Below are positions 8,057 through 62,365 of a stretch of DNA of 64,000 bases, piece by piece. Where the stretch lies: assembly GCA_963725235.1 (NCBI GenBank), contig CAVRXN010000002.1, positions 378,902-442,901 of the forward strand, given 5' to 3'. The position numbers and the translations under genes were made by a program. The number at the start of each line of letters is the position of its first letter. Position 1 is the stretch's first letter. Under the pieces are notes generated by a model. That model saw only the letters and a list, made by a program, of their open reading frames with translations. It did no database searches and was not told the DNA's origin. The DNA comes from an uncultured bacterium (lineage in GTDB: Bacteria > Patescibacteriota > Minisyncoccia > UBA6257 > 2-01-FULL-56-20).

Positions 8057-8071
8057 TAAAATATCTGCATG
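8057..8071 (+). promoter_or_regulatory. -10 box abutting the start codon (TAAAAT-N6-ATG); possible -35 TTGATT at 8035-8040
   Basis: Hexamer at 8057-8062, ATG at 8069. Confidence 0.4.
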
Positions 8072-8686
8072 ACTCACGACGATATAAAATCTTTTCTTGA
8101 AGAATTTAGCCCAAAACGTGATCGAACTATCGTGATTGTTGATTATGGAAATGTGGAAAAATGGAAACATAGTTTGGGATGGCGCGTAGGAATAAAAGAA
8201 TTAGCTGAGCTTGTTAAGAAGTTTTCGATCGGAAAGCAGCCTCTTCGAAGATTTTATTATGGGGCGGATTATGGAAAAGATGAAAAATCTGGGCTACTTA
8301 TTCCATGGTCGAAGGCTATTTTGGAAATGGCAGCAATGAATCGATTTGAAGTTATTAAGAAAAGAGTTAAGTACATCCATAATCCTGACAATACTCAGGG
8401 ATTTGAAAAGAAATGTGACCTTGATGTGGAGATGATAGTAGATTTGATAAGAGAAAGAGATAATTATGACAACATTATCTTATTCTCCGGAGATGGGGAT
8501 TTGATGTGTGGCATAAAATATCTATGTGAGGAATATAAAAAGTCGTGTATGGTATTTGGGGCAAGAAATCATACTGGTCGGGAAATTTTTGATGCGCAGA
8601 CTGCTGGATATGTCGCTAACATTTTTTATGCGGAAGATTTCGAATATCGATTAAGTCGAGATAGGCGGATACTTCCACATCGTTGA
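8069..8686 (+). CDS. NYN-domain (LabA/DUF88-like, PIN-fold) putative ribonuclease
   Basis: IVDYGN near the N-terminus, DLDVEMIVD in the middle and LFSGDGDL later, which matches the acidic-residue pattern of NYN domains. Confidence 0.65.
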   Translation: MTHDDIKSFLEEFSPKRDRTIVIVDYGNVEKWKHSLGWRVGIKELAELVKKFSIGKQPLRRFYYGADYGKDEKSGLLIPWSKAILEMAAMNRFEVIKKRVKYIHNPDNTQGFEKKCDLDVEMIVDLIRERDNYDNIILFSGDGDLMCGIKYLCEEYKKSCMVFGARNHTGREIFDAQTAGYVANIFYAEDFEYRLSRDRRILPHR

Positions 8687-8697
8687 TTGTGAGGAAG

Positions 8698-9669
8698 TTA
8701 TTTTCTAATTGATTTCCCTTTAATCCCATTCAGCACCTTCTGCACTTTCTTGATGCTCTCGTCATCCGCGATCGAAATGGCCATGACTTTTGGGTTTAGT
8801 TTCTTCAAAACAGTCAATCGCTTTTTTAATTCTTTTTCATCTAACAAATCTGCCTTCGACAAAAATAAATACTCAGGTTTCTTCAACAGCATCTTATTAT
8901 ATAAACCGAGCTCGCGGCGGATGGTTGTGTAGTCGGCGGCAGGCGACGCAGATTCGGCTGAAACGAAATGAAACAAAACGCCGGTACGTTCGATGTGCCT
9001 CAAAAACTTTATACCCAAACCGCGGCCGGTAGACGAGCCCTCAATCAGGCCAGGGATATCGGCGAGCACCAACTCATAGTAGACGCCGAGGTTTGGCTCC
9101 AATGTCGTGAAGGGGTAATTGGCGACTTTTGCGCTCGCGCGGGTCAGCGTGTTTAACATGCTCGACTTGCCGGCGTTCGGGAGGCCGACGAAGCCGACGT
9201 CGGCGATGAATTTCAGTTCGAGGCGCAGGTCATAGCTTTCGCCGGGGCGTCCGGCGTCGGACTCGCGCGGCGAGGTGTTGTGTGCGGACTTGAATTGCAG
9301 GTTGCCACGGCCGCCGATGCCGCCCTTCGCGAGCGCGATCTGAACGCCGGCCGCGACGATTTCGCTGTCTTCGCCCGTCGTCAGGTTATGTATGATCGTT
9401 CCGACCGGCAGTTTCAAAACTAAATCGGCACCGACGTGGCCATCGCGGAACTGGTCGCGCCCGTCGCGCCCATTCTCAGCGGCGAACTCTTTTTTGTAGC
9501 GGAATTGTCCCAAAGCAGAAAGATCCGAAACGCCGACAGCGAAAACGCTGCCGCCTTTGCCGCCGCTTCCGCCAGCAGGACCGAGCGACATCATGTTCTT
9601 ATTAAACGCCACCTTGCCAGCACCACCGTGGCCACCGCTGACTTTGATTGAGACCTCGTCGATTAGCAT
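8698..9669 (-). CDS. obg: GTPase Obg/CgtA
   Basis: Gly-rich Obg fold (GGHGGAG, GGSGGKGG, GGIGGRGN) followed by G-domain motifs GLPNAGKS, DIPG and SKAD. Confidence 0.95.
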   Translation of the reverse strand: MLIDEVSIKVSGGHGGAGKVAFNKNMMSLGPAGGSGGKGGSVFAVGVSDLSALGQFRYKKEFAAENGRDGRDQFRDGHVGADLVLKLPVGTIIHNLTTGEDSEIVAAGVQIALAKGGIGGRGNLQFKSAHNTSPRESDAGRPGESYDLRLELKFIADVGFVGLPNAGKSSMLNTLTRASAKVANYPFTTLEPNLGVYYELVLADIPGLIEGSSTGRGLGIKFLRHIERTGVLFHFVSAESASPAADYTTIRRELGLYNKMLLKKPEYLFLSKADLLDEKELKKRLTVLKKLNPKVMAISIADDESIKKVQKVLNGIKGKSIRK

Positions 9670-9681
9670 GAACGTATTATA
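9667..9681 (-). promoter_or_regulatory. -10 box abutting the obg start (TATAAT-N6-ATG)
   Basis: Minus-strand TATAAT at 9681-9676, ATG at 9669. Confidence 0.4.
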
Positions 9682-9743
9682 GCTCTATACTACCTGCATG
9701 GTATACTTATCACAAGGTCGATAGTTAACGAAATTAAAAAATC

Positions 9744-10004
9744 ATGAAACAAATGACGTGCCCAGCGATGGGAGGACCTGCGACGTGTACTGCGACGCTG
9801 AGCGGCAATACGCCGGAAGAGATGGTTGCGGATGGTATGAAGCATATCGAGACGGCTCATTCGGATATGGCAGCGCAAGTAAAAGCGATGTCGAAGGAAG
9901 ATACCGAGAAATGGTTTGCAGAATTCAAGACGAAGTTCGATGCTTTGCCGGAATTGCCGGCGGCACCCGCGACTCCCGCAGCTCCGACGACGCCGACGAT
10001 GTAG
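9744..10004 (+). CDS. DUF1059-family small protein with a Pro/Ala/Thr tail
   Basis: MKQMTCPAMGGPATC...TPEEMVADGMKHIETAHSD resembles the DUF1059 pattern. Confidence 0.6.
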   Translation: MKQMTCPAMGGPATCTATLSGNTPEEMVADGMKHIETAHSDMAAQVKAMSKEDTEKWFAEFKTKFDALPELPAAPATPAAPTTPTM

Positions 10005-10023
10005 GATTTGGTTTCGCTGTCAG

Positions 10024-10049
10024 AAAAATCCGGCTCGCGCCGGATTTTT
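10024..10049. terminator. Bidirectional Rho-independent terminator between convergent genes
   Basis: AAAAATCCGGC-tcgc-GCCGGATTTTT. Confidence 0.75.
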
Positions 10050-10058
10050 AATACAATC

Positions 10059-11360
10059 TTATTGCTGGCTGCTGCCGCAAACCTCGCCGTTCATGAACGC
10101 ACTGCTCGTCGCATAGGGATCGTATGCGGCGACCGGAACGGTGCAGCTCCAGGAAATCTGTGGCGCGATAAGTTTCGTCGCTATGCCGTCGCTGACGGTT
10201 ACGCTGCGGAGTGTGACATTAATCGCCGGATTCGTACCGCTGACGGCGAGGATGCTGACGCCGATCGCGTTGACCGGCAACACTTTTGCCGTGTTGGCGG
10301 GGATGGTGAATAACAAGGGAATGGAAACGCCGGTTGCGGAGCCGTCGGCCGCGGCGGTAGCGAGCGGGTAATCATAGAGCGATGCGCCGCTCACGGGGTC
10401 GGCGAAGCGCAGGACGAGCAGGCCGGTCGAGGTCGCGACGCCGGTATATGAGACGTCGACGGTCAGGCCCGTGATCGTTACAGGTTGGCTGTCCTGGTTG
10501 TCGAACGTGAAGCCGCCGTTGTTCGTGTTGTCTTGGAGCAAGCTGTCGGTTTCGGCCGCGACCGAGGCGACGAGGCGGCCGGGGTCGGTCGTGAAGTTAA
10601 AATCTTGCGAAACCGCGCGCCGGTCTGCGCCGGATTGCGGCGTGAGCGATACGGTGCAGACGTAGGCCGTTCGGACAGCGAAAATCGGATTTTGATTAGG
10701 GTCGGTCGCGAGCGCTGCCGCTGGCGGTGGAGTACACGACGTCGAAACTGCAAACCCGGCGGTTGAAGTAGTCATTAAATTCCAATTAATTTTTCCTGCC
10801 GCGCCCTCGTTTGTAACAAACGTCAGCCGTTCTGTGCTATCGAGCCCCTGCACGAGCGATACCGCCGTTTGGTCGAGGAATGATTGTGCGGTTAGGGGAG
10901 CGGTCGCTGCAGGCGTTGGTGTCGCGGGTGCCGGCACCGTTGCAAGGGATGGTTTTGCCTGGACAGTTTTTGCGACGACCTTCGGCGCTTTTATTGCAAC
11001 CGTAGTTGTCGCGGCCGTCGTCGTCGCGGTTAGTGGGAACGGCGGCAACTTAACCATCGGCAATAGATTCGGGATCACATTTGCAGTTCCGGCCGGCGTC
11101 GGTGTGGTCGAAGTTAAATTTGTCGCGGTCGACGAAGCGACCGTCGACGTCGTAAAAACCGGCAGCGGTATCATCGCGCTCTCAATAATCGCACTCTGCG
11201 CCGAAATCGCGACTGACGAAGTCGCGGCAGCAGCAGGCGTCGAGGTCGACACCTGACATGCTAAACCAGAATAGCCCGCGATCGAAAGCGTCAGCGCAAT
11301 CGCCATTTTTTGGAGAAAACCATGAACGACGTTATCAAGCAGATTGGACATCGCAAGCAT
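10059..11360 (-). CDS. Secreted/cell-surface Ala/Thr-rich protein, hypothetical
   Basis: N-terminal hydrophobic signal-like segment (MAIALTLSIAGYSGLA), then long T/A/S/P low-complexity, then a structured C-terminal half. The start at 11360 is supported by TATAAT-N6-ATG. Confidence 0.6.
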   Translation of the reverse strand: MLAMSNLLDNVVHGFLQKMAIALTLSIAGYSGLACQVSTSTPAAAATSSVAISAQSAIIESAMIPLPVFTTSTVASSTATNLTSTTPTPAGTANVIPNLLPMVKLPPFPLTATTTAATTTVAIKAPKVVAKTVQAKPSLATVPAPATPTPAATAPLTAQSFLDQTAVSLVQGLDSTERLTFVTNEGAAGKINWNLMTTSTAGFAVSTSCTPPPAAALATDPNQNPIFAVRTAYVCTVSLTPQSGADRRAVSQDFNFTTDPGRLVASVAAETDSLLQDNTNNGGFTFDNQDSQPVTITGLTVDVSYTGVATSTGLLVLRFADPVSGASLYDYPLATAAADGSATGVSIPLLFTIPANTAKVLPVNAIGVSILAVSGTNPAINVTLRSVTVSDGIATKLIAPQISWSCTVPVAAYDPYATSSAFMNGEVCGSSQQ

Positions 11361-11372
11361 TGTACTATTATA
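11358..11372 (-). promoter_or_regulatory. -10 box abutting the start codon (TATAAT-N6-ATG)
   Basis: Minus-strand TATAAT at 11372-11367, ATG at 11360. Confidence 0.4.
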
Positions 11373-11374
11373 CC

Positions 11375-11881
11375 TTACCGGATGTCGATAATGCGATATT
11401 CCTGTTCAGTGCCTGTGCCTGCTTTTATTTTCACGACATCGCCTTTCATATGTCCGATAAGCGCCGCGCCGAGCGGGGATTGGTGCGAGATACGTCCGTG
11501 CGTCGGATCCGTTTCGGCCGGACCGACAATTTCATATTTTTTTAATTTTTTGTTCAACTCCAAAACGACCGTCGATCCGAGTTGAATCGTTCCATCCCGG
11601 GCCGGCCCCGATGGAATCGCAACCGCGCGCTTCAGCTGTTGTTCGATTTCAAAAATCCGGCGATGCGCAAACCGCAGTGCACCTTTCGCCTGTTTGTACT
11701 CCGCATTGTCCGACCGATCACCATACGCAGCCGTGCGCGCCGCTTCACCCGCAAGCATCGGCACGCGCAGTTTCAAATTCGCGAGCTCCTTCTCGAGCCG
11801 CGCAATACCTGCTGGTGTCAGATGCACCGGTTCGCCATCCTGCTCACGCGATTCGTCATTTCGAAGCTTGTGGAGTTGCAT
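11375..11881 (-). CDS. GreA/GreB-family transcription elongation factor paralogue
   Basis: Coiled-coil tip reads GDRSDNAEY, and the C-terminal domain has ISHQSPLGAALIGHMKGDVV. It has a ~17-aa N-terminal extension relative to the second copy. Confidence 0.8.
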   Translation of the reverse strand: MQLHKLRNDESREQDGEPVHLTPAGIARLEKELANLKLRVPMLAGEAARTAAYGDRSDNAEYKQAKGALRFAHRRIFEIEQQLKRAVAIPSGPARDGTIQLGSTVVLELNKKLKKYEIVGPAETDPTHGRISHQSPLGAALIGHMKGDVVKIKAGTGTEQEYRIIDIR

Positions 11882-11884
11882 GGG

Positions 11885-12220
11885 TTAATACATCTCGTCC
11901 CTAATCCTCCCCAACTCCTTCACCACCTCCGCATCCGTAATCCGCATAAACCGCGGCCTCGTCACCCCATCCTTCGTCACATCCTCCATGAACATCCCGA
12001 GTGGGCGGAGATCGAACGATTTTCCGGCAATGTAAACGGAAGCAGTGTCGTACAGCGGCCGATAGACAACCATGTTCGCATCTTCTGGACGACAATCATC
12101 TTCCGTATGATGACCGACGCCCATAACTTCGTACGCATAGTTATTGATCGCGCCGTTCGGGTCGTGCTTATAGTGATAGTAAAAACCTTTTTCCGGAACG
12201 CGGTCGGGAATTTTTAACAT
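11885..12220 (-). CDS. DUF1653-domain protein
   Basis: GFYYHYKHD...YEVMGVGHHTED...VVYRPLY...RPLGMFME. ATG 12220 is preferred; the listed TTG 12265 is an alternative. Confidence 0.6.
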   Translation of the reverse strand: MLKIPDRVPEKGFYYHYKHDPNGAINNYAYEVMGVGHHTEDDCRPEDANMVVYRPLYDTASVYIAGKSFDLRPLGMFMEDVTKDGVTRPRFMRITDAEVVKELGRIRDEMY

Positions 12221-12265
12221 GATAAAATTTAATGAAAATTTAATAATCGCAAAGCGAGCAAACAA

Positions 12266-13528
12266 TTACTGATACTGAATATAACTCGGTTGCGGGCTGA
12301 GTTTCAATACCTGCGCCGGCGTCATCAAAGCGCCTAAAGGCCCAGCCGCATCATTCTTGTAGAACAACTTGAACCCCGTAAACTGGACGGGATAGGGGAC
12401 GATAACCTGCTCGTACGTGTTGATCTTTTTCGCCGGGAAGCCGAAGCCGTCCATATCCATGACGATCTGCACCGCCGGCAGCGGTTTAATCTCCGAAGTG
12501 TTCGTCACCATATCATCCGTGAACCGATGCACCACCAAGATTTTCGGCGGCAAATCATTCGCGGCGACGATGCTCGCGAGATAGTTCGCGGCCCAATTGA
12601 TATCCGACGCATCCATCGTTCCGATAACGGTACCCGGCCGTTCGCCGTTGTGCATATCGAATTCCGGATCGAGCGAAAGTTCGACATTCGGCAGCGCTAA
12701 ATATTTCTCTAAAAGCGGCACCTCGGTTTCAACATTACTCAAACCGACCTGAACATCGAGAAAAACAATTCCGTTAACCTGCTGCGCCATCGACAAGATC
12801 TGTTGAACCTGCGAGTCCGGCATTCTCAGTCGATATTTCCCATCCGGGCCCGGCGAGGCCTGTGCGGACACTACTATATAGTCGAGCGCCGGAACGACCG
12901 GCGTCGATGGATCCGCCGCAGCCCACATCGCCGTCGTCGACTCGAGCATCGCCAGAACCTGCGCCGGTGGATACTCGCCCAAAATACCCATCTGGGTCGA
13001 ATACAAATTGCCGTAATACGCGACGATGCGATGCGATGGCAATAACGCACCTTCGTCCGGATACGGCGCATTCTTCACCGGCCAACCGGTCACCGCAGTC
13101 GAGGTTACCATTATATTATGAAAAACAATCGACGATGTGCCGGTCGTCGGGTTGATAAATGTAGATGAAACGCGCAACGTCTTCGTAACGACCGGCAAGT
13201 TCGCGAGTGCGAGCATTTTCGTGTCGTACGCCATTTGCTCGGCGGATGTCAGCGGAATCAATGGCGTTGAAGAAGCGAATAAAGGAACATCCGAGACCTG
13301 CGTTAAAATCGGATCACTATTACCGTCCATACTAGTCGAACCGGTCGTGCTGGTCGCTGACGACGTTGCAGTCGTGGCCGTCGAAGTCGTCGAGCCAGAG
13401 TCCGCACCCGTATGCGAATTTTTAATAACTACAATATTCGAATTATTCATCGCAAAAAAGATAATCGCGACGATCACGACCAAAAAAAGGATGCCGCCGA
13501 CCAACCACCAAGTTCGTGATTGCTTCAT
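12266..13528 (-). CDS. Membrane-anchored extracellular protein of unknown function
   Basis: N-terminal TM helix, a Ser/Thr-rich linker, then a ~300-aa globular domain I could not assign. ATG 13528 has TATAAT 7 nt upstream; GTG 13534 is an alternative start. Confidence 0.6.
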   Translation of the reverse strand: MKQSRTWWLVGGILFLVVIVAIIFFAMNNSNIVVIKNSHTGADSGSTTSTATTATSSATSTTGSTSMDGNSDPILTQVSDVPLFASSTPLIPLTSAEQMAYDTKMLALANLPVVTKTLRVSSTFINPTTGTSSIVFHNIMVTSTAVTGWPVKNAPYPDEGALLPSHRIVAYYGNLYSTQMGILGEYPPAQVLAMLESTTAMWAAADPSTPVVPALDYIVVSAQASPGPDGKYRLRMPDSQVQQILSMAQQVNGIVFLDVQVGLSNVETEVPLLEKYLALPNVELSLDPEFDMHNGERPGTVIGTMDASDINWAANYLASIVAANDLPPKILVVHRFTDDMVTNTSEIKPLPAVQIVMDMDGFGFPAKKINTYEQVIVPYPVQFTGFKLFYKNDAAGPLGALMTPAQVLKLSPQPSYIQYQ

Positions 13529-13553
13529 TACCACAATTATATCAGAAAACTTA

Positions 13554-13580
13554 CAAAAAGAAGCCGCTATGAACGGCTTC
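13554..13580 (-). terminator. Rho-independent terminator
   Basis: GAAGCCG-N7-CGGCTTC, followed on the minus strand by TTTTTGT. Confidence 0.6.
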
Positions 13581-13608
13581 GTATGATATTCGCCGAACCT
13601 CGACGATT

Positions 13609-13794
13609 TTAGCTGCCTTGTGGCGGCGTTCGATCGCTCACCACCACACTGAAACTACCATCCGGCTTTTCCGTCGCTACGACGTTGCAGCCGTGTGCCC
13701 TATGGTACTGAGCTACTAGTGACTCCGCTATGGTTTTTCTGATTTCTGGGTCTTGAGATGCGGTTTTGAAATTGCTAACCAAGACTGTATACAT
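13609..13794 (-). CDS. Small hypothetical protein (61 aa)
   Basis: GAGGAGG lies 6 nt upstream of the ATG and a terminator lies downstream. Confidence 0.5.
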   Translation of the reverse strand: MYTVLVSNFKTASQDPEIRKTIAESLVAQYHRAHGCNVVATEKPDGSFSVVVSDRTPPQGS

Positions 13795-13837
13795 ACATTC
13801 CCTCCTCAGGAATCATAACATGAACTCAGTTATTATG

Positions 13838-15721
13838 TCAACCGTCAGCATCCCCGCCGCCGAACTGCGTTCGATAGAGCGTCGCGTACAAACCGCCGGC
13901 GGCGAGTAATTCCTTATGTCGTCCATGTTCGACGATTCGGCCTTTTTCGAGGACGAGAATTTGCGCAGCGTTTTGGATGGTCGAGAGGCGATGGGCGATG
14001 ACGAGCGACGTGCGGCCGGCGAGCGCATGGGTGAATGCCTGCTGGATGAGGCGTTCGGATTCGGAGTCGAGATGCGCGGTGGCTTCGTCGAGGATGACGA
14101 TCGGCGGAGCTTTTAATAGAACGCGCGCGATCGCGATCCGTTGTTTTTCGCCGCCGGACAAACGATACCCACGCTCGCCAATTACCGTATCGACGCCCTG
14201 CGGCAATGATTCGATCAGCGGCAAAATCTGCGCGTCGCGCAACGCGGCCGTTATCTCGGCATCGGTCGCGCCCGGCCGCGCGTAAACCAAATTCGCACGG
14301 ATCGTGTCGTGGAACATATGCGCCTCCTGCGTAACGACACCGATCATCTCGTGCAGCGAATCCTGTGTCGCCTCCCGAATGTCGACGCCATTAATTTTTA
14401 TCGCGCCCTCCTGAACATCGTACAGTCGTGGCACGAGTTGGGTTATCGTCGTTTTGCCCGCGCCGGATGGTCCGACGAGCGCGGTCAATTCGCCCGGCCG
14501 CGCGATAAAATTAACATCATGCAAAACTTCTTGCTCCGGCGCCGAGCTTAGGACGGCAACCGACTCGAGCGATGCGAGCGAAATTTCACTCGGGCGCGGA
14601 TAACTGAACGAGACATGATCGAATTCGATTTGCGCCGGCCTCTTTGGCAACGCCCTTGCGTCCGGCTTATCCACGACCATTGGCTTCAAGTCCAAAATCT
14701 CAAAAACGCGATCGAAAGAAACAAGTGTCGTCACGATATCGACTTGAACGTTCGATAACGCAGTTAGCGGCCCGTACAAGCGTGCAAGATATGCTGCGAA
14801 TGCGACGACGGTACCGACGTCGAGCAGGCCATGGATCGAGAGCACGCCACCCCAGCCATATGCTACGGCGACGGCGACCGATGCAATGAAGCCGAGACCA
14901 ACAAAAAAGAATCGCGTATAGTTCGCGAGCTTGACGCCGATATCTTTGACACGCGCCGCGCGCGTGCGGAATGCATTTTCCTCATCCGCACTGCGGCCAA
15001 AAATTTTCGCAAGCTGTGCACCCGCAACATTAAACCGCTCGACCATCAGGTCGTTCATCTCCGACGCGAGGTTGTACGATTCGCGCGTGAGCGCCTGGAT
15101 GCGCTTGGCTATGAAGCGGGCTGGGATGAGAAAAATCGGGATTAAAATTAAAGCGATGAGCGTCAGCTTCCATGACAAAATAAACATCGCGATCAAAATT
15201 AATAAGCTCGTTATAAAATTGCTGACGATCGTCGAGAGGATGTCCGTGAATGCGCTTTGTATCCCGCCGACGTCGATGTTCAGGCGCGAGACGAGAGCAC
15301 CGGTGCGCGTCCGGGTAAAGAATGCGAGCGACATTTTCTGGATGTGTGTAAAAACACGCGTACGCATCTCGTAGAGCATTTCTTGGCCGATGCGGACGGC
15401 GATGCCGCGTTCAAGGAACGTGAAGATCCCGTCGGCGAGCGCGATGAGCGCGATCCAGATCGCGACGAAAATGATCAAATGTTCATTATTTTTTAATATT
15501 CCGTTATCTATAATATCGCGATATAACAGCGGATTGATGACGCCGACGACGGCGTCGAGGATGACCCAAACCAAAAACAGGGCAAGCTGCCACTTGTATG
15601 TTTTGCCGAATTCGATTATACGTTTAGTTGTTCCGGGCGGGATAGTCTGCTTTAGGACGTCGCTATCGCGGGTGAGCGAGCGAAAGCCACCACGGCCGCC
15701 GGCGCCTCCAATATTTGCCAT
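13838..15721 (-). CDS. ABC exporter, fused permease/ATPase (MsbA-like type I exporter)
   Basis: Six-helix TM region, then GPSGAGKTT, LSGGEKQR and ILDEATAHLD. Confidence 0.9.
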   Translation of the reverse strand: MANIGGAGGRGGFRSLTRDSDVLKQTIPPGTTKRIIEFGKTYKWQLALFLVWVILDAVVGVINPLLYRDIIDNGILKNNEHLIIFVAIWIALIALADGIFTFLERGIAVRIGQEMLYEMRTRVFTHIQKMSLAFFTRTRTGALVSRLNIDVGGIQSAFTDILSTIVSNFITSLLILIAMFILSWKLTLIALILIPIFLIPARFIAKRIQALTRESYNLASEMNDLMVERFNVAGAQLAKIFGRSADEENAFRTRAARVKDIGVKLANYTRFFFVGLGFIASVAVAVAYGWGGVLSIHGLLDVGTVVAFAAYLARLYGPLTALSNVQVDIVTTLVSFDRVFEILDLKPMVVDKPDARALPKRPAQIEFDHVSFSYPRPSEISLASLESVAVLSSAPEQEVLHDVNFIARPGELTALVGPSGAGKTTITQLVPRLYDVQEGAIKINGVDIREATQDSLHEMIGVVTQEAHMFHDTIRANLVYARPGATDAEITAALRDAQILPLIESLPQGVDTVIGERGYRLSGGEKQRIAIARVLLKAPPIVILDEATAHLDSESERLIQQAFTHALAGRTSLVIAHRLSTIQNAAQILVLEKGRIVEHGRHKELLAAGGLYATLYRTQFGGGDADG

Positions 15722-15765
15722 GAGCGTTAAGAATTACTATTATACTACAGAGTGCTGCAAAAAGA

Positions 15766-15780
15766 TATTAAAAGGATATG
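15766..15780 (+). promoter_or_regulatory. -10 box abutting the start codon (TATTAA-N6-ATG)
   Basis: Hexamer at 15766-15771, ATG at 15778. Confidence 0.4.
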
Positions 15781-16890
15781 AAAAACGATAAGGAATTGAT
15801 CACGGGTTTGGCGGCGCGGGCGGGGATTGCGATCAATGGCGATGAGCCGTGGGATATTAAAGTGCATAACGAGGATTTCTATTCGCGCGTTTTACGGCAG
15901 TTATATTTAGGCCTCGGCGAATCGTACATGGATGGGTGGTGGGATTGCGACCGGTTGGATGAATTTTTTAATAAAACGATCCGCGCCGATCTCGAGGATG
16001 AACTAAAAAATTGGCGGCTGGCCGTACATTTTTTGAAAGCGCAGGTCGTCAATCGCCAGAAACGGTCGCGCTCCGCCGAAGTTGCACACAAGCATTACGA
16101 CATCGGCAACAATTTATACGAACACATGCTTGGCGAGAGCATGGCGTATACCTGCGGCTATTGGAAAGATGCGAAGACGCTCGACGAAGCGCAGAACGCG
16201 AAGTTCGATCTCGTCTGCCGGAAAGTTGGTTTGAAGCCGGGGATGAAAATTATCGATCTCGGCTGCGGCTTTGGCGGTTTTCTGAAATATGCCGCGGAGC
16301 ATTATGGCGTCAGCGGCGTCGGCATGAACCTTTCGAAAGAGCAAATTGCATTCGCGCGCGAAAAAGCAAAAGATTTGCCGCTCGAATTTCGGCTCGCCGA
16401 TTATCGCGACGCCCGCGGAAAATTCGATCGCGTCATTTCGATCGGCATGACCGAACATGTCGGCCATAAAAACTATCGTTCATTCTTGCAACTGGCACAC
16501 GATCTACTCAAGGATGACGGACTATTTTTGCTCCATACGATCGGCAACAATACGTCGGTGACTTCCGTTGATCCGTGGAGCGACAAGTATATTTTCCCGA
16601 ACGGCAATATTCCGTCGATCAAGCAGTTGGGCGGCGCGATGGAAGGATTGTTCGTCATGGAGGACTGGCATAATTTTGGCACGGACTACGATAAAACGTT
16701 GATGGCGTGGCATGAAAATTTTGTTAAAAACTGGGCGCACATTAAAAAAGATTACGATGAGCGATTCTATCGCATGTGGATTTATTATCTCTTGTCCTGC
16801 GCGGGCGCATTCCGCGCGCGAAAAATCCAGCTCTGGCAGGTAGTGTTATCAAAACAAGGCGTTCTCGGCGGCTATCAGACGGTTCGTTAA
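15778..16890 (+). CDS. cfa: Cyclopropane-fatty-acyl-phospholipid synthase family SAM-dependent methyltransferase
   Basis: HYDIGNNLYEHMLGESMAYTCGYW, DLGCGFGG and the C-terminal YYLLSCAGAFRAR are typical of the CFA synthase / mycolic acid methyltransferase family. Confidence 0.9.
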   Translation: MKNDKELITGLAARAGIAINGDEPWDIKVHNEDFYSRVLRQLYLGLGESYMDGWWDCDRLDEFFNKTIRADLEDELKNWRLAVHFLKAQVVNRQKRSRSAEVAHKHYDIGNNLYEHMLGESMAYTCGYWKDAKTLDEAQNAKFDLVCRKVGLKPGMKIIDLGCGFGGFLKYAAEHYGVSGVGMNLSKEQIAFAREKAKDLPLEFRLADYRDARGKFDRVISIGMTEHVGHKNYRSFLQLAHDLLKDDGLFLLHTIGNNTSVTSVDPWSDKYIFPNGNIPSIKQLGGAMEGLFVMEDWHNFGTDYDKTLMAWHENFVKNWAHIKKDYDERFYRMWIYYLLSCAGAFRARKIQLWQVVLSKQGVLGGYQTVR

Positions 16891-16892
16891 CT

Positions 16893-18236
16893 ATGGAAGC
16901 AACATACGAGGCGAGAAAAGCGCGTTTGTCGGAACAAATGCGGCAATCGGGAAACGTACGGCTTGGCAAGCAAACGTCAAATCTGTTTCGTGAGCGCGAT
17001 AAAGGCTCGGAGCAAACTCTGACTGTCCGTGATTTTAATCATGTTTTAACAATTAATATCGAGGAAGGGTGGGCTGAAGTCGAGGGAATGACGACATACG
17101 AAGCGTTTACGGATGAAACATTAAAATATGGTTATATGCCGGCAGTTGTTCCGCAACTGAAAACGATAACCGTCGGCGGTGCCGTTGCCGGCGTCGGCAT
17201 CGAATCGTCATCGTTCCGGTATGGCCTCGTCCACGAAACAATGTTCGAACTCGAAGTGTTACTCGCAAGCGGAGAAACGATCGTTTGCAGTCCGGCGCAG
17301 AACGCGGATCTTTTTTACGGATTCCCCAACTCATATGGAACGTTTGGCTACGCACTTCGGCTGAAAATGAAAATTGTTCCGGTGAAGCCGTTCGTGAAAA
17401 TCGAACACGCGCGCTATCGCAGCACGGAATCGTATTTCCCCGCGCTCGAAAAAACGACGAGCGGCGCGACGGAAAGTTCGGCAGCAAATCAGGCCGATTT
17501 CGTCGATGGCACGATATTCGATCCGGATGAACTGTATATTACGAAGGGGACATTCGTCGACGAAGCGCCGTTCGTCAGCGACTACACCTACATGGATATT
17601 TATTATAAATCGATTCGCGTCCGGCACGAAGACTATCTCTCTGTACGCGATTATATCTGGCGCTGGGACACGGATTGGTTTTGGTGCTCGGCGGCGTTCG
17701 GCGCACAGCATCCGTTGATCCGGTGGTTGCTCGGAAGAAAGCGGCTTAATTCAGCCGTGTACTGGAAGATTAAAAATTTTGCGCAGCGGCATCCGATTCT
17801 TATGAAAACATCCGCCGGTTTTTCGCGCCGCGAATATATTATCCAAGACGTCGACATTCCAATTGCGACCGCGCCGAAGTTTGCCGAATTTTTCTTTGAA
17901 AATATTACCATAGGGCCCATATGGATCTGTCCGTTTCGCGGTTCGCGCGAGGCCGAGAAATTTAATTTATACTCATTCGGCCCGGACAAACTCTATGTCA
18001 ATTTCGGTTTCTGGAATTCCGTTGCAACCAAACAACCGGACGGGTATTACAACCGGATGGTCGAAAAGAAAGTCGAAGAACTCGGCGGTAAAAAAAGCCT
18101 CTATTCAGATTCTTTCTATACACCGGAAGAATTTTGGAATATATTCGATAAGCCGATGTATGATCAGATGAAGCAGAAATATGATCCGCAGGAGAAATTA
18201 AAAAATTTGTATGATAAGGCAGTCCGCCGAAAATAA
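16893..18236 (+). CDS. FAD-binding (PCMH-type) oxidoreductase, DHCR24/DWF1-like
   Basis: ITVGGAVAGVGIESSSFRYGLVHE FAD-binding segment and a YIWRWDTDWFW C-terminal region. ATG 16893 lies 2 nt after the cfa stop; the upstream part of ORF 16776.. overlaps cfa. Confidence 0.8.
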   Translation: MEATYEARKARLSEQMRQSGNVRLGKQTSNLFRERDKGSEQTLTVRDFNHVLTINIEEGWAEVEGMTTYEAFTDETLKYGYMPAVVPQLKTITVGGAVAGVGIESSSFRYGLVHETMFELEVLLASGETIVCSPAQNADLFYGFPNSYGTFGYALRLKMKIVPVKPFVKIEHARYRSTESYFPALEKTTSGATESSAANQADFVDGTIFDPDELYITKGTFVDEAPFVSDYTYMDIYYKSIRVRHEDYLSVRDYIWRWDTDWFWCSAAFGAQHPLIRWLLGRKRLNSAVYWKIKNFAQRHPILMKTSAGFSRREYIIQDVDIPIATAPKFAEFFFENITIGPIWICPFRGSREAEKFNLYSFGPDKLYVNFGFWNSVATKQPDGYYNRMVEKKVEELGGKKSLYSDSFYTPEEFWNIFDKPMYDQMKQKYDPQEKLKNLYDKAVRRK

Positions 18237-43948: not shown

Positions 43949-43955
43949 TACAATC

Positions 43956-45393: not shown

Positions 45394-46840
45394 AAGCTTA
45401 ACCTGGGAGAAAGAACGTAAACGAAATGCGCTCGAGCTATTTCATAAAGCAGCGCACGAAGTTCCGGCGTATAAAGATTTCTTGAGAAAGAATAAAATTA
45501 ATCCGACAAAGATCAAGACCTTTGCCGATTTCCAATTCGTACCTCCAGTTAATAAGAAAAATTATTTGCGACAATATCCGCCCGACAAATTGGTTTGGGG
45601 AGGCAAGCTCAGCAATGCAACTGTCTGGACGTCCACTTCAGGTTCTACCGGAGAACCATTTTATTTCCCGCGGACAGAGATGCTGGACAAACAATATTCT
45701 GTTTTAGCAGAAACATTCTTAAATGACAGTTCGTATGGCATCGAAAAGCCAACGCTCGTCATCGTCGGATTTGGTATGGGTGTCTGGATTGGCGGCATCT
45801 TAACTTATAAAGCATTCGAGATTGCAAGCCAGCGGGTAAAACAAGTTGTGTCTATCATAACGCCGGGAATCAATAAAGGTGAAATTTTTCATGCGCTGAA
45901 ATCACTTTCGCCGCGATTTGGTCAAACGATACTGATCGGCTATCCGCCATTTATTAAAGATGTCCTTGAGGAAGCACCTGTGCAGGGGATTGATCTTAAA
46001 AAACTTCATATCCGTCTCTTGTTTGCAGCAGAAGCATTTACCGAATCCTTTCGCGATTACCTAGCAAAGCAAGTAGGTATAAAAAACGTATATCGCGACA
46101 CGCTGAATATTTATGGTACCGCTGACATTGGTGCAATGGCATCCGAAACGCCAACAAGCATTCTTTTGCGCCGGCTTGCATTAAAGAATAACCATCTATT
46201 TGAAACACTCTTCACTAAAATAACCAAAACTCCGACGGTCGCACAATATAATCCGACGTTTATAACATTCGAGGCTCCTGAAGGTGAAATCCTATTGACC
46301 GGGAACAATACGCTACCGTTGATTCGCTATGCCGTCGGAGATCATGGTGGTATCTTTTCGATGGATGAGATGCGGGAAAAGCTCACCCAACATGAGATGG
46401 ATTTTGCAGCTGTAGCGCGACGCGTGCATGCGCCAATTAATGAAATGCCGTTCGTGTATGTCTATGAGCGCAGCGACTTCTCAGTCAAATTGTATGGTGC
46501 AATTATTTACCCTGAACACATCCGCGAAGCCCTTGCTCATCCAGCCCTGCAAACCTTCGTTACCGGTAAATTCACCATGATGACAAAATTTAATAAAAAG
46601 GAAGATGAATATTTGGAGATTGCCATAGAAATGAAACGCGGGAAGAAAGTATCAAAGTCCTTCACGCAAAAGATACAGCATCATATCGTTGAATCACTAT
46701 TAAAACGGAACGCCGAATATCGCAATAATTACCATTCCATGCCGCATAAAGTAACTCCCACCATCGTTTTGTGGAACTATGAAGATCCGCTTTATTTCCG
46801 CCCCGGCATAAAACAAAAATGGGTATTGAAGCCAATTTGA
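45377..46840 (+). CDS. Adenylate-forming ligase, phenylacetate-CoA ligase / F390 synthetase (PaaK/CapK)-like
   Basis: TSTSGSTGEPFYFP (AMP-binding P-loop-like motif) and an N-terminal AYKDFL...F..VP..K..Y pattern. ATG 45377 overlaps the upstream gene by 17 nt. Confidence 0.7.
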   Translation: MQQKDKSLTWEKERKRNALELFHKAAHEVPAYKDFLRKNKINPTKIKTFADFQFVPPVNKKNYLRQYPPDKLVWGGKLSNATVWTSTSGSTGEPFYFPRTEMLDKQYSVLAETFLNDSSYGIEKPTLVIVGFGMGVWIGGILTYKAFEIASQRVKQVVSIITPGINKGEIFHALKSLSPRFGQTILIGYPPFIKDVLEEAPVQGIDLKKLHIRLLFAAEAFTESFRDYLAKQVGIKNVYRDTLNIYGTADIGAMASETPTSILLRRLALKNNHLFETLFTKITKTPTVAQYNPTFITFEAPEGEILLTGNNTLPLIRYAVGDHGGIFSMDEMREKLTQHEMDFAAVARRVHAPINEMPFVYVYERSDFSVKLYGAIIYPEHIREALAHPALQTFVTGKFTMMTKFNKKEDEYLEIAIEMKRGKKVSKSFTQKIQHHIVESLLKRNAEYRNNYHSMPHKVTPTIVLWNYEDPLYFRPGIKQKWVLKPI

Positions 46841-46855
46841 TATAATAAGAAGATG
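46841..46855 (+). promoter_or_regulatory. -10 box abutting the start codon (TATAAT-N6-ATG)
   Basis: Hexamer at 46841-46846, directly after the upstream TGA. ATG at 46853. Confidence 0.4.
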
Positions 46856-48054: not shown

Positions 48055-48651
48055 TTATTGTTTCCTTGCGATGATATGAAAGATATGTATGTGTAGCGGT
48101 TTTAAAGAAAGGGTTGTGTAATCATTTTTTTCTTGCTCAAACAGTTCAATGATTTCCATATCTGATAGCAATGCTTCTACCTCTGTCTTTTTTTGAAAAA
48201 TGATACTTCGCGACGGAGTATTCCTTTCGTCACGCTCTCCAAAAAGTTGACCTACAAAAATACCATCTTTTACGAGTGATTGTTTTATTTTTGCAAATAT
48301 AGAGTCAAAATTTTTTTTGGAAGAAAAAGGTAATGCATATTGGGCATTCACAATATCATATCGATCCTCAGGAAATTCGAAATCTTCGAAAGACGAAATA
48401 ATATAAGAGAAACGATCAGTTCGTAGTTCCAATGCTATTTCTTTGGCGACAGGCTCTTTATCGACTGCCGTGACATGGCGAAATCCTTCTTCCAATAGAT
48501 ATTTGGTATCATTCAGTGCGCTTGCACCAAGATCGAGCGCCTCATCTTGTCGAAGAACATAAGCCAGAGCTTTCACTAAAAGCTCCCGAGGTGCTTGTCC
48601 TTTTGTCTTTTTAAAATATTCTTGCCAAGAATTATCAAAGCTTTTTTTCAT
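48055..48651 (-). CDS. Class I methyltransferase-like protein (TehB-like fold, degenerate SAM motif I)
   Basis: ALDLGASALNDTKYLLEEGFRHVTAVD occupies the place of DLGCGxGxN...V.AVD. DIVNAQYALPF and LVKDGIFV are also present. Confidence 0.55.
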   Translation of the reverse strand: MKKSFDNSWQEYFKKTKGQAPRELLVKALAYVLRQDEALDLGASALNDTKYLLEEGFRHVTAVDKEPVAKEIALELRTDRFSYIISSFEDFEFPEDRYDIVNAQYALPFSSKKNFDSIFAKIKQSLVKDGIFVGQLFGERDERNTPSRSIIFQKKTEVEALLSDMEIIELFEQEKNDYTTLSLKPLHIHIFHIIARKQ

Positions 48652-48739: not shown

Positions 48740-49216
48740 TCATGCGAAAGCAGGATTCATGAATTCTGTGCAATGCGTTATCTTGCCGCAAGCGCAGCAG
48801 CAGGTAACGTTCTCTTCGAGTCGCATCAGGTCGTGCCGTAGGTTTTTCCCGAATGTCGCCTCGAGTCGTCTTAACGCATAGTTGGCGTAGACCCGCTTCG
48901 CTTCCTGGGAATTTGCAAGATCCGCCGGATCGTGATCGACGAATCGTCCTGCGAATTCTTCACAAAATTCACGATAGAACTGCGTATTCAATACAAAGCT
49001 ATGCCAGATGCGATCCACTGATTGAAGCATTTGGATCGGTTGTGTTGCTTCCGGGACGAGCGAAAACCATTGCAGAAACGCATCCAAAAGTTCCTTGGCG
49101 CGCTTCTTTGATTTTACGTCGCATTCACGCATGGCGGTTTCGAGGATGGGAGAATAATCTCGTGCCCTCTTCATCTTCCGATACAATCGATAGGTTCTTT
49201 TGTCAAGATCCGTCAT
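48740..49216 (-). CDS. Hypothetical protein (resembles glycine-rich-domain / COG4278-type proteins)
   Basis: VDRIWHSFVLNTQFYREFCEEFAGRFVDHDP and a C-terminal CCCACG...C cluster. AGGAGG lies 8 nt upstream of the ATG. Confidence 0.5.
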   Translation of the reverse strand: MTDLDKRTYRLYRKMKRARDYSPILETAMRECDVKSKKRAKELLDAFLQWFSLVPEATQPIQMLQSVDRIWHSFVLNTQFYREFCEEFAGRFVDHDPADLANSQEAKRVYANYALRRLEATFGKNLRHDLMRLEENVTCCCACGKITHCTEFMNPAFA

Positions 49217-49289
49217 CTAGACACCCTCCTGAGGTGCTTTCGTTAGTATGGCATATATAAAATAGACGTCAAATCTTTATAAAATCTGC

Positions 49290-49304
49290 TATACTGAAAA
49301 CATG
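49290..49304 (+). promoter_or_regulatory. -10 box abutting the start codon (TATACT-N6-ATG)
   Basis: Hexamer at 49290-49295, ATG at 49302. Confidence 0.4.
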
Positions 49305-50336
49305 AACCCAAATTATCGCGCCTGGGATGTTCCCTTTGATGCTTTTCCTCTCGGGGAAACTGAAATGGATAAGTTAAAATTTTTACTCCGTTTTGCTATA
49401 CTGGCACCTTCTGGACATAATACGCAACCTTGGAATTTTTCGATCACTAGAAATGAGATTTCACTTTTAGTGAATCGTGAACGCTCGCTTGAAGGAAGTG
49501 ATCCGCATAGACGTCAACTTTTGATTGCTTTCGGATGCATGATCGAAAATTTATTTATTTCTGCAAATCATTACGGCTACGAAGCTAATATTAACTATTT
49601 TCCCAATTCGCAAAATCATGATCTGATTGCCAAGATTTCTATTGTTGAGAGCAGTGGAAATCATAAAAACAATAACAATGATTTATTTTTTGCAATTTCT
49701 GCGCGCCATACGAATCGGGGAAAATATCTCGACCGATCACTGCCGGAGAATTTTCTTCAACGCATCGAGCGATACGAAGAAAAAGATTTAAAAATTTCTA
49801 TCGTCACAGATAATGCTCAAAAACATATCATCGCTGACATCATCAATGAGGCGCAGATCGAAACTATGGATAGTTCAGAATTCCGCGAAGAACTCTCGCA
49901 GTATATTAAATCTAGTTTTACTCGGGAAACTACTGGCATGCCTGGTTTTGTATTAGAGATTCCTGCGCCAATATCTCTTTTTGCTTCTCGCTTAATAAAA
50001 AAGATAAATCTTTCTCGGAAGAGCCGAAAGAAAGATGATGCCTTACTTAAACAATATACCCCGGCCGCTTTCATAATTATTAGTTCGCGAGATAATGACC
50101 GAGGAAGTTGGCTTGCGGCTGGAAGATTATTCGAGAAATTATGGCTCACTGCTACGGCTGAAGGGTTAAATTGCTCACCGATGGCCGCAGCAATACAATC
50201 CCCAATATATAATAAGAGGCTTCGGGAATCTCTCGGTATCGATTTCGAGCCCCAGGTTTTTTTTCGCATCGGTTATGGGCGGAGACAGTTTCACCATAGC
50301 CCTCGATTTTCCGTGGAAGAACTTTTAAAAAAATAG
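49302..50336 (+). CDS. Acg-family (tandem nitroreductase-fold) putative FMN-binding oxidoreductase
   Basis: LRFAILAPSGHNTQPWNF, ISARHTNRG and ~340 aa in two nitroreductase-like halves. Confidence 0.7.
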   Translation: MNPNYRAWDVPFDAFPLGETEMDKLKFLLRFAILAPSGHNTQPWNFSITRNEISLLVNRERSLEGSDPHRRQLLIAFGCMIENLFISANHYGYEANINYFPNSQNHDLIAKISIVESSGNHKNNNNDLFFAISARHTNRGKYLDRSLPENFLQRIERYEEKDLKISIVTDNAQKHIIADIINEAQIETMDSSEFREELSQYIKSSFTRETTGMPGFVLEIPAPISLFASRLIKKINLSRKSRKKDDALLKQYTPAAFIIISSRDNDRGSWLAAGRLFEKLWLTATAEGLNCSPMAAAIQSPIYNKRLRESLGIDFEPQVFFRIGYGRRQFHHSPRFSVEELLKK

Positions 50337-52019: not shown

Positions 52020-52042
52020 TTGCTACTCTATTCCGCCTATGG

Positions 52043-52057
52043 TAAAATAGTTCCATG
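52043..52057 (+). promoter_or_regulatory. -10 box abutting the start codon (TAAAAT-N6-ATG)
   Basis: Hexamer at 52043-52048, ATG at 52055. Confidence 0.4.
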
Positions 52058-53634: not shown

Positions 53635-53649
53635 TATAATAAGAATATG
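53635..53649 (+). promoter_or_regulatory. -10 box abutting the start codon (TATAAT-N6-ATG)
   Basis: Hexamer at 53635-53640, ATG at 53647. Confidence 0.4.
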
Positions 53650-61057: not shown

Positions 61058-61069
61058 CGCAAAAATATT

Positions 61070-61084
61070 TATTAAAAAATCATG
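61070..61084 (+). promoter_or_regulatory. -10-like box abutting the start codon (TATTAA-N6-ATG)
   Basis: Hexamer at 61070-61075, ATG at 61082. It could equally be an internal operon junction. Confidence 0.3.
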
Positions 61085-61828
61085 AAAACCATCTACATAA
61101 TGTGGCTCCGCGAATTGAAGCGATACATCCGCTCGAAATCACGAATCCTTGGCTCGCTTGGCCAACCGCTCTTATTCCTGCTCGCACTCGGCTACGGACT
61201 CGGCTCGGTCTTCGCGGCAGCAGGGCAGGGGAATTATTTTAAATTTCTCGCGCCGGGCATTATCGGCATGAGCATTATTTTCACCGCAATCTTCTCCGGC
61301 ATCCAATTGATTTGGGATCGCCAATTCGGCTTCTTGAAAGAAACGCTCGTCGCGCCTGTCAATCGATTCAACATCATGCTCGGCCGGACGCTCGGTGGCG
61401 CAACCGTCGCAACCATCCAGGGCATCGTCGTTTTTCTTCTCGCCGTCATCTTCGGCTTCCGCCCCGATAACTGGGCGCTTCTCCCCGTCGCCATAGTCTT
61501 CATGCTCCTCGTCGCCCTGCTTTTCACCGCGCTCGGCACCGGCATCGCATCGCTCCTGGACGACATGCAGGGCTTCCAGCTAATCATGAACTTCCTCGTC
61601 ATGCCGCTATTTTTCCTTTCCGGCGCACTCTTCCCATTGACCGGCCTGCCCGCTATCCTTTCCGACCTGACAGTCATCGATCCGCTCTCGTACGGCATCG
61701 ACTCATTCCGCGCCCTGCTCGTTAACAGCACCCACTTCGGCCTCGTAACCGACACCAGCGTCCTCGTCATCGTTACGCTCGTCTTCCTCGGCATCGGAAC
61801 GTATTTGTTCTCGAAGATTGAGGTGTAA
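61082..61828 (+). CDS. ABC-2-type transporter permease
   Basis: Six TM helices with an N-terminal WLRELKRYIRSKSRILG, typical of ABC-2 permeases. Confidence 0.9.
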   Translation: MKTIYIMWLRELKRYIRSKSRILGSLGQPLLFLLALGYGLGSVFAAAGQGNYFKFLAPGIIGMSIIFTAIFSGIQLIWDRQFGFLKETLVAPVNRFNIMLGRTLGGATVATIQGIVVFLLAVIFGFRPDNWALLPVAIVFMLLVALLFTALGTGIASLLDDMQGFQLIMNFLVMPLFFLSGALFPLTGLPAILSDLTVIDPLSYGIDSFRALLVNSTHFGLVTDTSVLVIVTLVFLGIGTYLFSKIEV

Positions 61829-61837
61829 GTTTGTTGC

Positions 61838-61872
61838 AAAAAAAGGACGATAACGCTTACGCGCAATCGTCC
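61838..61872 (-). terminator. Rho-independent terminator
   Basis: GGACGAT-N14-ATCGTCC, followed on the minus strand by TTTTTTT. Confidence 0.6.
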
Positions 61873-61888
61873 AATGGTTTCCGTTGCA

Positions 61889-62275
61889 TTACGGGATCAT
61901 GTACATGCCAAGAATATTGGCCCCAATAGCAAAGACAATGCAAGGATAAGCAAAAATCTTGTGGAACTTCTCAGACCGAGTTCCGGAAAAACGAAATTTG
62001 ATCAGGGAAAGCGTAATCGCAAAACCCGGCGCGAAAAAATACAGATGGGCTTTGACGATCGGTGTATTTCTGTCGAGAGAAGGAAGAAAAGCGATGGACA
62101 CGAGGACAGCTATAACGACCGCAACCGTCACGTTGAACAGCCCAATCTTTCCGTTGACAAGTACCCGGTGAAGATCGACGGCTGGCATATGGCGGCCGCG
62201 GTTAAGCTTCGTCCAAATCCCGGTCGTTGCGATACAAACGACTAGAAACAATGACCAAACGGTCGCAACATTCAT
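61889..62275 (-). CDS. Membrane protein, hypothetical
   Basis: Four hydrophobic helices. ATG 62275 is preferred over the listed 62368, which would overlap the divergent promoter. Confidence 0.5.
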   Translation of the reverse strand: MNVATVWSLFLVVCIATTGIWTKLNRGRHMPAVDLHRVLVNGKIGLFNVTVAVVIAVLVSIAFLPSLDRNTPIVKAHLYFFAPGFAITLSLIKFRFSGTRSEKFHKIFAYPCIVFAIGANILGMYMIP

Positions 62276-62350
62276 GAAACACCTGAAAAAAACTATCATA
62301 CCGCTCCTTTCCGCGACTAATATCGCATTTGAGCTAATGGAAATATAGCA

Positions 62351-62365
62351 TATAATTACATCATG
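62351..62365 (+). promoter_or_regulatory. -10 box abutting the start codon (TATAAT-N6-ATG)
   Basis: Hexamer at 62351-62356, ATG at 62363. Confidence 0.4.

Follow-up and report, generated by a model that had tools for sequence, protein, structure and literature searches.

We analysed a 64,000-nucleotide (nt) stretch of DNA, hereafter the window (assembly GCA_963725235.1, contig CAVRXN010000002.1, positions 378,902–442,901 of the forward strand; guanine-plus-cytosine (GC) content about 50%), and found that hexamers of the form TAnnnT stand at a fixed, short distance before the ATG of about a fifth of its genes. Judged by their sequence, the canonical sites, with the hexamer at −12 to −7 or −13 to −8 relative to the A of the start codon, are very probably −10 elements of housekeeping sigma70-type promoters, and the mRNAs would start at the AUG. 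Since RNA polymerase normally starts 7–8 nt past the final base of a −10 box, transcription is expected on the A of the ATG itself. The gene content of the window indicates that its source is a bacterium of the Candidate Phyla Radiation (CPR), Parcubacteria group, as detailed in the last section.

A −10-Like Box at a Fixed Distance before the Start Codon

The initial annotation of this DNA had listed 14 genes with a −10-like hexamer exactly 6 nt before the ATG, three further genes with a 7-nt spacer, and four copies of a longer A-rich string. All of these hexamers, 7-nt sites and strings were found in place. Our counts used 72 gene starts, four of which were set to the ATG chosen in that annotation. 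Its hexamer set (TAAAAT, TATAAT, TATTAA, TACAAT and TATACT), which is a loose one, occurred at offset −12 before 15 of the 72 starts, while the mean at the other offsets between −50 and −6 was 0.74 and the maximum 2 (Poisson P for the −12 peak about 5 × 10−15). A control with internal ATGs had been proposed together with the list. When we ran it, the set was absent before all 348 ATGs that are internal and in frame, and it stood before 4 of the 2095 other ATGs. For the general form TAnnnT at 6–7 nt, the counts were 15/72 gene starts and 4/348 internal in-frame ATGs.

The pattern could be caused by chance or selection, in that AT-rich intergenic DNA readily yields hexamers resembling TATAAT and the ATGs that fit are then picked. 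The upstream regions are indeed AT-rich (36% GC vs. 50%), the hexamer set is loose, and several starts of the initial annotation differ from the longest-ORF start (ORF, open reading frame). However, the peak appears only at −12 within flanks that are equally AT-rich. It also persists when starts are assigned mechanically by the longest ORF, where matches to TATAAT at five or more of six positions number 9 at −12 and about 1.3 elsewhere. A test free of gene calls gave the same picture: 46 copies of TATAAT exist in the window, and an ATG follows after 6, 7 and 8 nt in 7, 3 and 3 of them, against a background of about 0.7 per spacing (13 at 6–8 nt, about 2 expected). No peak was seen in this test when control triplets took the place of ATG. 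TGnTAnnnT had an ATG 6 nt past its end in 9 cases in the window, with 2.0 expected. Since the pattern moreover recurs in independent genomes and at orthologous starts, as described below, we give hardly any credence to an artefact.

The box covers about 20% of the genes and about one third of the likely transcription-unit starts. At 6–7 nt it precedes 10 of 33 likely transcription-unit starts and 5 of 39 internal genes, that is, it is two to three times commoner at the former. Three of the five boxes before internal genes carry an upstream TGn, and these three look like internal promoters. Many genes of the window are spaced only −4 to +20 nt apart.

The sites with a TAnnnT box, each given as box, spacer and start codon, are as follows.

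2315–2333 (+): TGtTACAAT, 7 nt, ATG 2331; M50 peptidase gene, box kept in both of two orthologues
6969–6984 (+): TATAAT, 7 nt, ATG 6982; 92-aa gene
7822–7862 (−): TTGACA, 17 nt, TGcTATCCT, 9 nt, ATG 7824; complete canonical promoter, predicted leader about 2–3 nt
8035–8040 (+): TTGATT, −35-like element of ATG 8069, with a 16-nt spacer to the box
8054–8071 (+): TGaTAAAAT, 6 nt, ATG 8069; NYN-domain gene 8069–8686 (Pfam)
9667–9681 (−): TATAAT (9681–9676), 6 nt, ATG 9669; obg, 8698–9669
11358–11372 (−): TATAAT (11372–11367), 6 nt, ATG 11360; ORF 10059–11360, start uncertain
13526–13544 (−): TGaTATAAT, 7 nt, ATG 13528; 420-aa gene 12266–13528
29325–29342 (+): TGgTATAAT, 6 nt, ATG 29340; response-regulator gene 29340–29717, right after the 16S gene
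41938–41955 (−): TGcTACAAT, 6 nt, ATG 41940; PMT_2 glycosyltransferase gene 40378–41940
41940–41959 (+): TGcTATAAT, 8 nt, ATG 41957; gene 41957–42388
43941–43958 (+): TGaTATAAT, 6 nt, ATG 43956; receiver-domain gene 43956–44342, Pfam domain from residue 4
46838–46855 (+): TGaTATAAT, 6 nt, ATG 46853; ThiF-family gene
49287–49304 (+): TGcTATACT, 6 nt, ATG 49302; nitroreductase-family gene 49302–50336
52040–52057 (+): TGgTAAAAT, 6 nt, ATG 52055; 68-aa SPW-domain gene
53635–53649 (+): TATAAT, 6 nt, ATG 53647; 122-aa gene
62351–62365 (+): TATAAT, 6 nt, ATG 62363; PD-(D/E)XK nuclease gene 62363–63058

The 6-nt site TGaTATAAT at 43941–43949 (ATG 43956) was absent from the initial annotation, as were the TGn-extended boxes at 8–10 nt before ATG 3053, 7824, 29780, 41957 and 60152. 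Several start codons are anchored independently, because Pfam domains begin at residues 3–10 in Obg, both receiver proteins, the M50 peptidase and the SPW protein.

The head-to-head pair at 41940 (−) and 41957 (+) has start codons only 16 nt apart (window 41938–41959), and two TGn-extended −10 boxes overlap on opposite strands within the near-palindrome GCTATAATTGTAGC. A gap of 16 nt leaves no room for leaders.

Two further observations concern the neighbourhood of the boxes. The 46853 gene takes the TG for its extended −10 box (46838–46846) from the TGA stop codon of gene 45347–46840, and a stop codon doubling in this way shows tight promoter packing between genes. A terminator-like hairpin (13580–13560) lies just 5′ of the box of the 13528 gene.

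Conservation of the Box in Related Genomes

We explored the layout in 80 Parcubacteria Obg loci and in a second set of 74 contigs with a 16S rRNA gene lacking the anti-Shine-Dalgarno (anti-SD) sequence. In the Obg loci, TATAAT was followed by ATG after 6 nt in 64 cases and after 7 nt in 48 cases (background about 17), and in the 16S contigs the corresponding counts were 14 and 25 (background about 5.5). In relatives, an ATG stood 6 nt past TGnTAnnnT 95 times, with 34.7 expected (P = 3 × 10−17).

The box is also kept at orthologous starts. A TAnnnT at 6–7 nt was found in 32 of 79 Obg orthologues. Of the 80 Obg relatives, 79 align from residue 1, and two orthologues start with GTG. When 78 distinct Obg upstream regions from different species were compiled without selection, A at −11 was found in 63%, T at −7 in 53% and T at −12 in 47%, and T/G at −15/−14 were also among the most informative positions. 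The middle positions vary freely, and G or C is often found there (TAGGAT, TAGCAT, TACAAT). Orthologues of the response-regulator gene (ATG 29340) have TAnnnT at 6–7 nt in 18 of 22 cases, nearly all with TGn, and the box is kept though the surrounding sequence has diverged.

Among 1201 crudely called gene starts of relatives, 16.9% had TAnnnT at 6–7 nt (5.2% in the control window), and 10.6% had SD-like motifs (6.8% in the control window). The SD-like and leaderless-like fractions per locus were uncorrelated across relatives (Spearman’s correlation, 0.07); all relatives are SD-poor, so this result cannot reveal a trade-off. A BLAST search of the 80 Obg loci with the 16S gene found no match. 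The initial annotation had suggested that the box looks like a genome-wide initiation mode. Its generality is borne out in that the layout is a habit of the lineage and not a local oddity, and its extent is narrower, since only about 20% of genes have it.

Probable Promoter Identity of the Box

We investigated whether the bases around the hexamer agree with a promoter. Of the 27 start-proximal TAnnnT hexamers in the window, 10 (37%) had TG exactly at positions −3/−2, as had 25 of 358 others (7%; P = 3 × 10−5). In the 80 related loci the corresponding values were 27% and 7% (P = 3 × 10−9), and TG was not enriched at neighbouring offsets. A −35-like TTG at 16–18 nt was weakly enriched (17% vs. 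9.5%). One tRNA gene of the window stands under the same promoter grammar, TTGATA-16-TATAAT. The profile of T at −12, A at −11 and T at −7 together with TG is that of the base-specific contacts of sigma70 regions 2 and 3, and extended −10 promoters of the form TGnTAnnnT need little or no −35 element.

The spacing peak is tied to ATG. With TTG, CTG or ATC in place of ATG after TGnTAnnnT, the peak was absent in the window and in relatives. GTG gave no peak in the window and a marginal excess in relatives (23 vs. 15.3 expected, P = 0.04).

Because of the position-specific TG, the weak −35 TTG, the A−11/T−7 profile and the bias to transcription-unit starts, the hexamer behaves, as far as its sequence tells, as a promoter −10 element and not as a ribosome site.

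Loss of the Anti-Shine-Dalgarno Sequence

The 16S gene ends ...GTGGATCAATTAAACT, with the 3′ end GGATCAATTAAACT at 29217–29230 (+) and the tail GGAUCAAUUAAACU; CCUCC is absent. The usual bacterial 16S end is ...GGATCACCTCCTTA. Here, AUUAAACU is found in place of the anti-SD CCUCCUUA, both being 8 nt long. We scanned metagenomes for related genes with a looser 16S pattern built on the geometry of h45 (a stricter one gave 0 matches) and set eukaryotic 18S matches aside. About 80 related 16S 3′ ends without CCUCC were obtained. The tail GGATCAATTAAAC(T), that is AAUUAAAC(U), is shared by at least 35 of these metagenomic genes, and their sequences diverge right after it (the loci include L122, L147, L162, L165, L118 and L100). 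Since the tail is kept and the flank diverges at once, the tail is genuine, belongs to the mature rRNA and has the canonical length. Other sub-clades have the tails AAUUCCAA, AAUUAAUU or AAUUAUUU. With the anti-SD tail replaced, SD pairing is, by the sequence of this rRNA, not possible with this ribosome.

The gene starts are in accord with this. The initial annotation had noted that most other first genes of operons lack a Shine-Dalgarno motif, and SD 4-mers at −18 to −4 were in fact not enriched: they precede 6 of 72 starts; control windows contain 6–7, and 4.9 ± 2.2 are expected at random. From −13 to −1 the start regions are depleted in G and enriched in A, A is favoured at −3, and structure is weak.

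These results raise the question of whether the hexamer is itself a ribosome signal. In the Bacteroidetes, classed as group B of GeneMarkS-2, a motif precedes both the first and the internal genes of operons and hence cannot be a promoter (PMC6028130). The AU-rich hexamer could likewise be an element that binds the ribosome or enhances translation independently of SD, in mRNAs that have leaders and are transcribed from further upstream. Without an anti-SD and an SD signal some other start signal is needed, and the A-rich, G-poor and weakly structured start regions with A at −3 would suit such an element. A spacing of 6 nt is normal for a ribosome-binding site (RBS) too, and 5 of the 39 operon-internal genes have the box. 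However, the hexamer follows the rules of sigma70, with T−12, A−11 and T−7 fixed and the middle free to take G or C in relatives, and TG stands exactly one base upstream, for which we know of no ribosome contact. The box also marks transcription-unit starts two to three times as often as internal genes, and it is bound to ATG, with no peak for TTG and a marginal one for GTG, as leaderless initiation predicts. The 16-nt gap between ATG 41940 and ATG 41957 would be too small for promoters plus leaders. We therefore consider a ribosome element of this kind unlikely. The motif of the window differs from that of group B in its −10 and TGn grammar and in standing mainly at transcription-unit starts; the same motif was not found alike before first and internal genes. 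The general A-richness is a separate feature, and it is this that resembles group B, in which SD is unused as well and the sequence around starts is rich in A and poor in G, with A favoured at −3. Bacteroidetes keep a sequestered anti-SD, and a different −7 motif is found at their promoters.

Another ribosomal explanation is that SD pairing has been re-invented with the new 16S tail, 5′-AAUUAAACU-3′. That at least 35 relatives conserve this tail in their 16S genes, at canonical length, would fit a function in pairing, the spacing of the box is SD-like, and TATAAT differs by one mismatch from the sequence complementary to AUUAAA. However, the exact complements of the tail, TTTAAT, GTTTAA, TTAATT and TTTAA, were not enriched at a fixed distance before ATG in the window, the 80 Obg loci or the 74 contigs, and no other motif complementary to the tail was found before start codons there. 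The hexamers TAGGAT, TACACT and TAGCAT of relatives would be unable to pair with the tail, and pairing would leave the TG signature unexplained. This explanation is thus very improbable, and a −10 element remains our preferred reading of the hexamer.

TATTAA Sites and the A-Rich Repeat

Not all hexamers of the initial annotation are −10-like. Four of the 14 are TATTAA, which has no T at −7. They are listed below.

15766–15771 (+): TATTAA, A-rich, without the repeat; cfa (ATG 15778)
21936–21922 (−): TATTAA with the repeat, containing an exact ATTAAAAAATCATG; ATG 21924
26097–26111 (+): TATTAA with the repeat, TATTAAAAAATCATG, containing an exact ATTAAAAAATCATG
61070–61084 (+): TATTAA with the repeat, containing an exact ATTAAAAAATCATG; ATG 61082

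The 14-mer ATTAAAAAATCATG has five exact copies in the window, at 9733–9746 (+), 21935 (−), 26098, 41144–41157 (+) and 61071. Copies with at most two mismatches number 13, with 1.5 expected. The copy at 41144–41157 is away from any gene start, and all four copies at gene starts (9744, 21924, 26109 and 61082) are followed by AAA. Near-copies ending in ATT were also observed, one at 25715 in the gap before gene 25738 and two spanning stop codons, at 52250 (gene end 52261) and 54011 (gene end 54015). The repeat was not seen in relatives and is genome-specific, and no complementarity between it and the 16S rRNA was found.

The excess of TATTAA at −12 arises from this repeated 14-mer. TATTAA was rejected as a −10 box, as it has no T at −7, TATTAA-6-ATG is not enriched in relatives, and the string also precedes ATG 9744, which has its own box. 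This box, TGgTATACT, ends 36 nt upstream of the ATG, which makes a leader of about 30 nt probable for the 9744 mRNA. From its sequence and positions, ATTAAAAAATCATG is probably an A-rich, SD-independent start context for leadered or coupled genes. Accordingly, the statement that the core genes obg and cfa both follow the rule can be kept for obg, whose box is conserved, and not for cfa, where TATTAA leaves no −10 box.

Proposed Initiation Mode

We propose the following explanation. The boxes would mostly be of the extended TGnTAnnnT type, with little or no −35 element required. Transcription would begin on the A of the ATG where the spacer is 6–7 nt, and 1–3 nt upstream of it where the spacer is 8–10 nt. 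The resulting mRNAs would have no 5′ leader, and the ribosome would initiate on the 5′-terminal AUG. This layout would apply to about 20% of the genes, here and in related Parcubacteria. The remaining genes sit close together inside operons or, in a few cases, are leadered; with their A-rich, G-poor and weakly structured start regions, they would presumably use SD-independent initiation or re-initiation. The suggestion of the initial annotation, that a sigma70-type box places the transcription start on the A of the AUG, held in every sequence-based test that we ran, the start being deduced from promoter geometry.

Several points weigh against this explanation. About half of the sites of the initial annotation lie in short same-strand gaps of 12–35 nt; the upstream part of the promoter would then be inside the preceding gene, and read-through transcripts containing the box must exist too. 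The −35 signal is weak, and the TATTAA sites (15766, 21936, 26097 and 61070) depart from TAnnnT. ATG 11360 has no N-terminal homology support, and Prodigal splits ORF 10059–11360 on a Logan contig. SD 5-mers occur at 5 starts, with 1.6 ± 1.2 at random, and strong GGAGG(G) motifs at SD distance precede a few ORFs, at 13794 (−), 49216 (−), 54477 (−) and 4389 (+). The evidence from the genome itself is confined to one 64-kb window, and the fractions in relatives rest on crude longest-ORF gene calls. Lastly, the transcription start is read from promoter geometry, and the translation mechanism is one that we infer.

The ORFs preceded by GGAGG may be relics, imported genes or chance. One of them is an unannotated 61-aa ORF, 13794–13609 (−), which has the GGAGG-type motif, a near-consensus promoter TTGACA-18-TATGAT upstream and the hairpin 13580–13560 downstream (region 13609–13841).

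We lean towards the view that the anti-SD-less Parcubacteria have dropped SD pairing wholly and rely on two SD-independent routes, namely leaderless initiation from extended −10 promoters in about a third of the units, and A-rich, unstructured contexts or re-initiation in all other genes.

Comparison with Known Systems

A Pribnow box 6–8 nt before the start codon is a known signal of leaderless transcription in Actinobacteria, Deinococcus-Thermus and some Mycoplasma, and defines group C of GeneMarkS-2 (PMC6028130, PMC3160421, PMC4007540, PMC4633059). In group C genomes 25–50% of transcripts are predicted to be leaderless, and the members using genetic code 11 almost all have high GC content (PMC6028130). 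The layout found here is similar to that of group C, for example Mycobacterium tuberculosis, in having TANNNT 6–8 nt before the start of first-in-operon genes, those without SD. The proportion is also similar, as about a third of the likely transcription-unit starts fit the layout, and the AUG preference of group C is found again in the spacing peak of TATAAT and TGnTAnnnT. However, group C genomes keep the anti-SD and use an SD-type RBS at the remaining leadered and internal genes, whereas here the anti-SD is absent and the remaining genes show no SD signal. The extended −10 TGn is prominent here, unlike in group C, and the genome is tiny with about 50% GC. In group C the starts have been mapped experimentally, whereas here they are predicted.

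Tsurumaki et al. (2022, RNA 28:1041) reported the loss of the anti-SD in a subgroup of Parcubacteria and suggested that SD helices are probably not formed (PMC9297842). A further mark of that subgroup is an overlap with loss of the ribosomal protein uL1; the rplA region lies outside the window. The route of initiation was not addressed, and the word ‘leaderless’ is absent from that paper (PMC9297842). The present genome belongs to the same lineage and has the same loss of CCUCCU at the 16S 3′ end; insertions in the 16S gene and a reduced ribosome are typical for CPR bacteria. The promoter-at-start-codon layout is additional to what was described there. In the literature that we searched, no report of a leaderless layout in Parcubacteria was found, though the GeneMarkS-2 genome lists may already class some CPR genome as group C, and leaderless initiation was mentioned together with Patescibacteria only incidentally. 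Thus, the architecture is well known elsewhere; what is new is the lineage, with SD pairing absent altogether.

Mammalian mitochondria have a small-subunit rRNA without anti-SD and leaderless mRNAs processed from polycistronic transcripts, and in many archaea most operons are transcribed leaderless, with a TATA box about 26 nt from the start. The likeness to both is analogy and not homology, for the transcription machinery differs. If the explanation is true, the full abandonment of SD would be the counterpart of mitochondria in a free-living bacterium, and it would answer the question left by the 2022 report. It would also bring a deep-branching lineage into the debate over leaderless initiation as the ancestral mode.

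Parcubacteria, which have reduced ribosomes, rank with the most abundant of uncultured bacteria. The layout supplies a concrete and testable initiation mode for the anti-SD-less subgroup, and its rules for promoters and start codons could be used in future genetic tools for CPR. It also affects the gene-start annotation of thousands of CPR genomes, where SD-based models will misplace starts, and start models trained on SD probably mis-annotate genomes of this sort. Two start calls on the public Logan contig L001 (ERR11523662), which is identical to window 4389–17681, already differ from those used here: ORF 10059–11360 is called as a shorter gene plus an ORF on the opposite strand, and the start of the 9744 gene is called at 9768.

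Organism and Other Features of the Window

The proteins of the window are bacterial and include Obg, cyclopropane-fatty-acid synthase, GreA, PBP2, GAPDH, GroES/EL, L19 and a DEAD-box helicase. Two MreB paralogues and three tRNA genes are also encoded. The nearest Obg relatives among 185,579 species genomes all belong to metagenome-assembled genomes of Parcubacteria, Paceibacterota or Patescibacteria, with at most 75% identity. The placement in the Parcubacteria group of CPR follows from these bacterial proteins, the 16S insertion and the Obg relatives. An archaeal origin, raised by the first Rfam match, was rejected, as the bacterial small-subunit (SSU) rRNA model fits and Obg, GreA, MreB and PBP2 are bacterial.

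26817–29230 (+): 16S rRNA gene, interrupted by an insert of about 800 nt; Rfam SSU match

The insertion encodes a LAGLIDADG_2 homing endonuclease (ORF 27927–28592). No 23S gene follows the 16S gene, and the response-regulator gene begins 110 nt past its end. This synteny of 16S and response regulator was seen again in many related metagenome contigs.

The PBP2-like gene consists of two overlapping ORFs, 36716–38131 and 37950–38648, and the transpeptidase domain is cut at their junction. A frameshift or an assembly error may account for this, or the gene may be a pseudogene. Between 44000 and 54000 the GC content falls to 0.43–0.46, and codon usage is atypical in 48055–48651, 48740–49216 and 49302–50336, so that this region may be an acquired island. 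Start-proximal −10 boxes are present inside it, before ATG 46853, 49302, 52055 and 53647.

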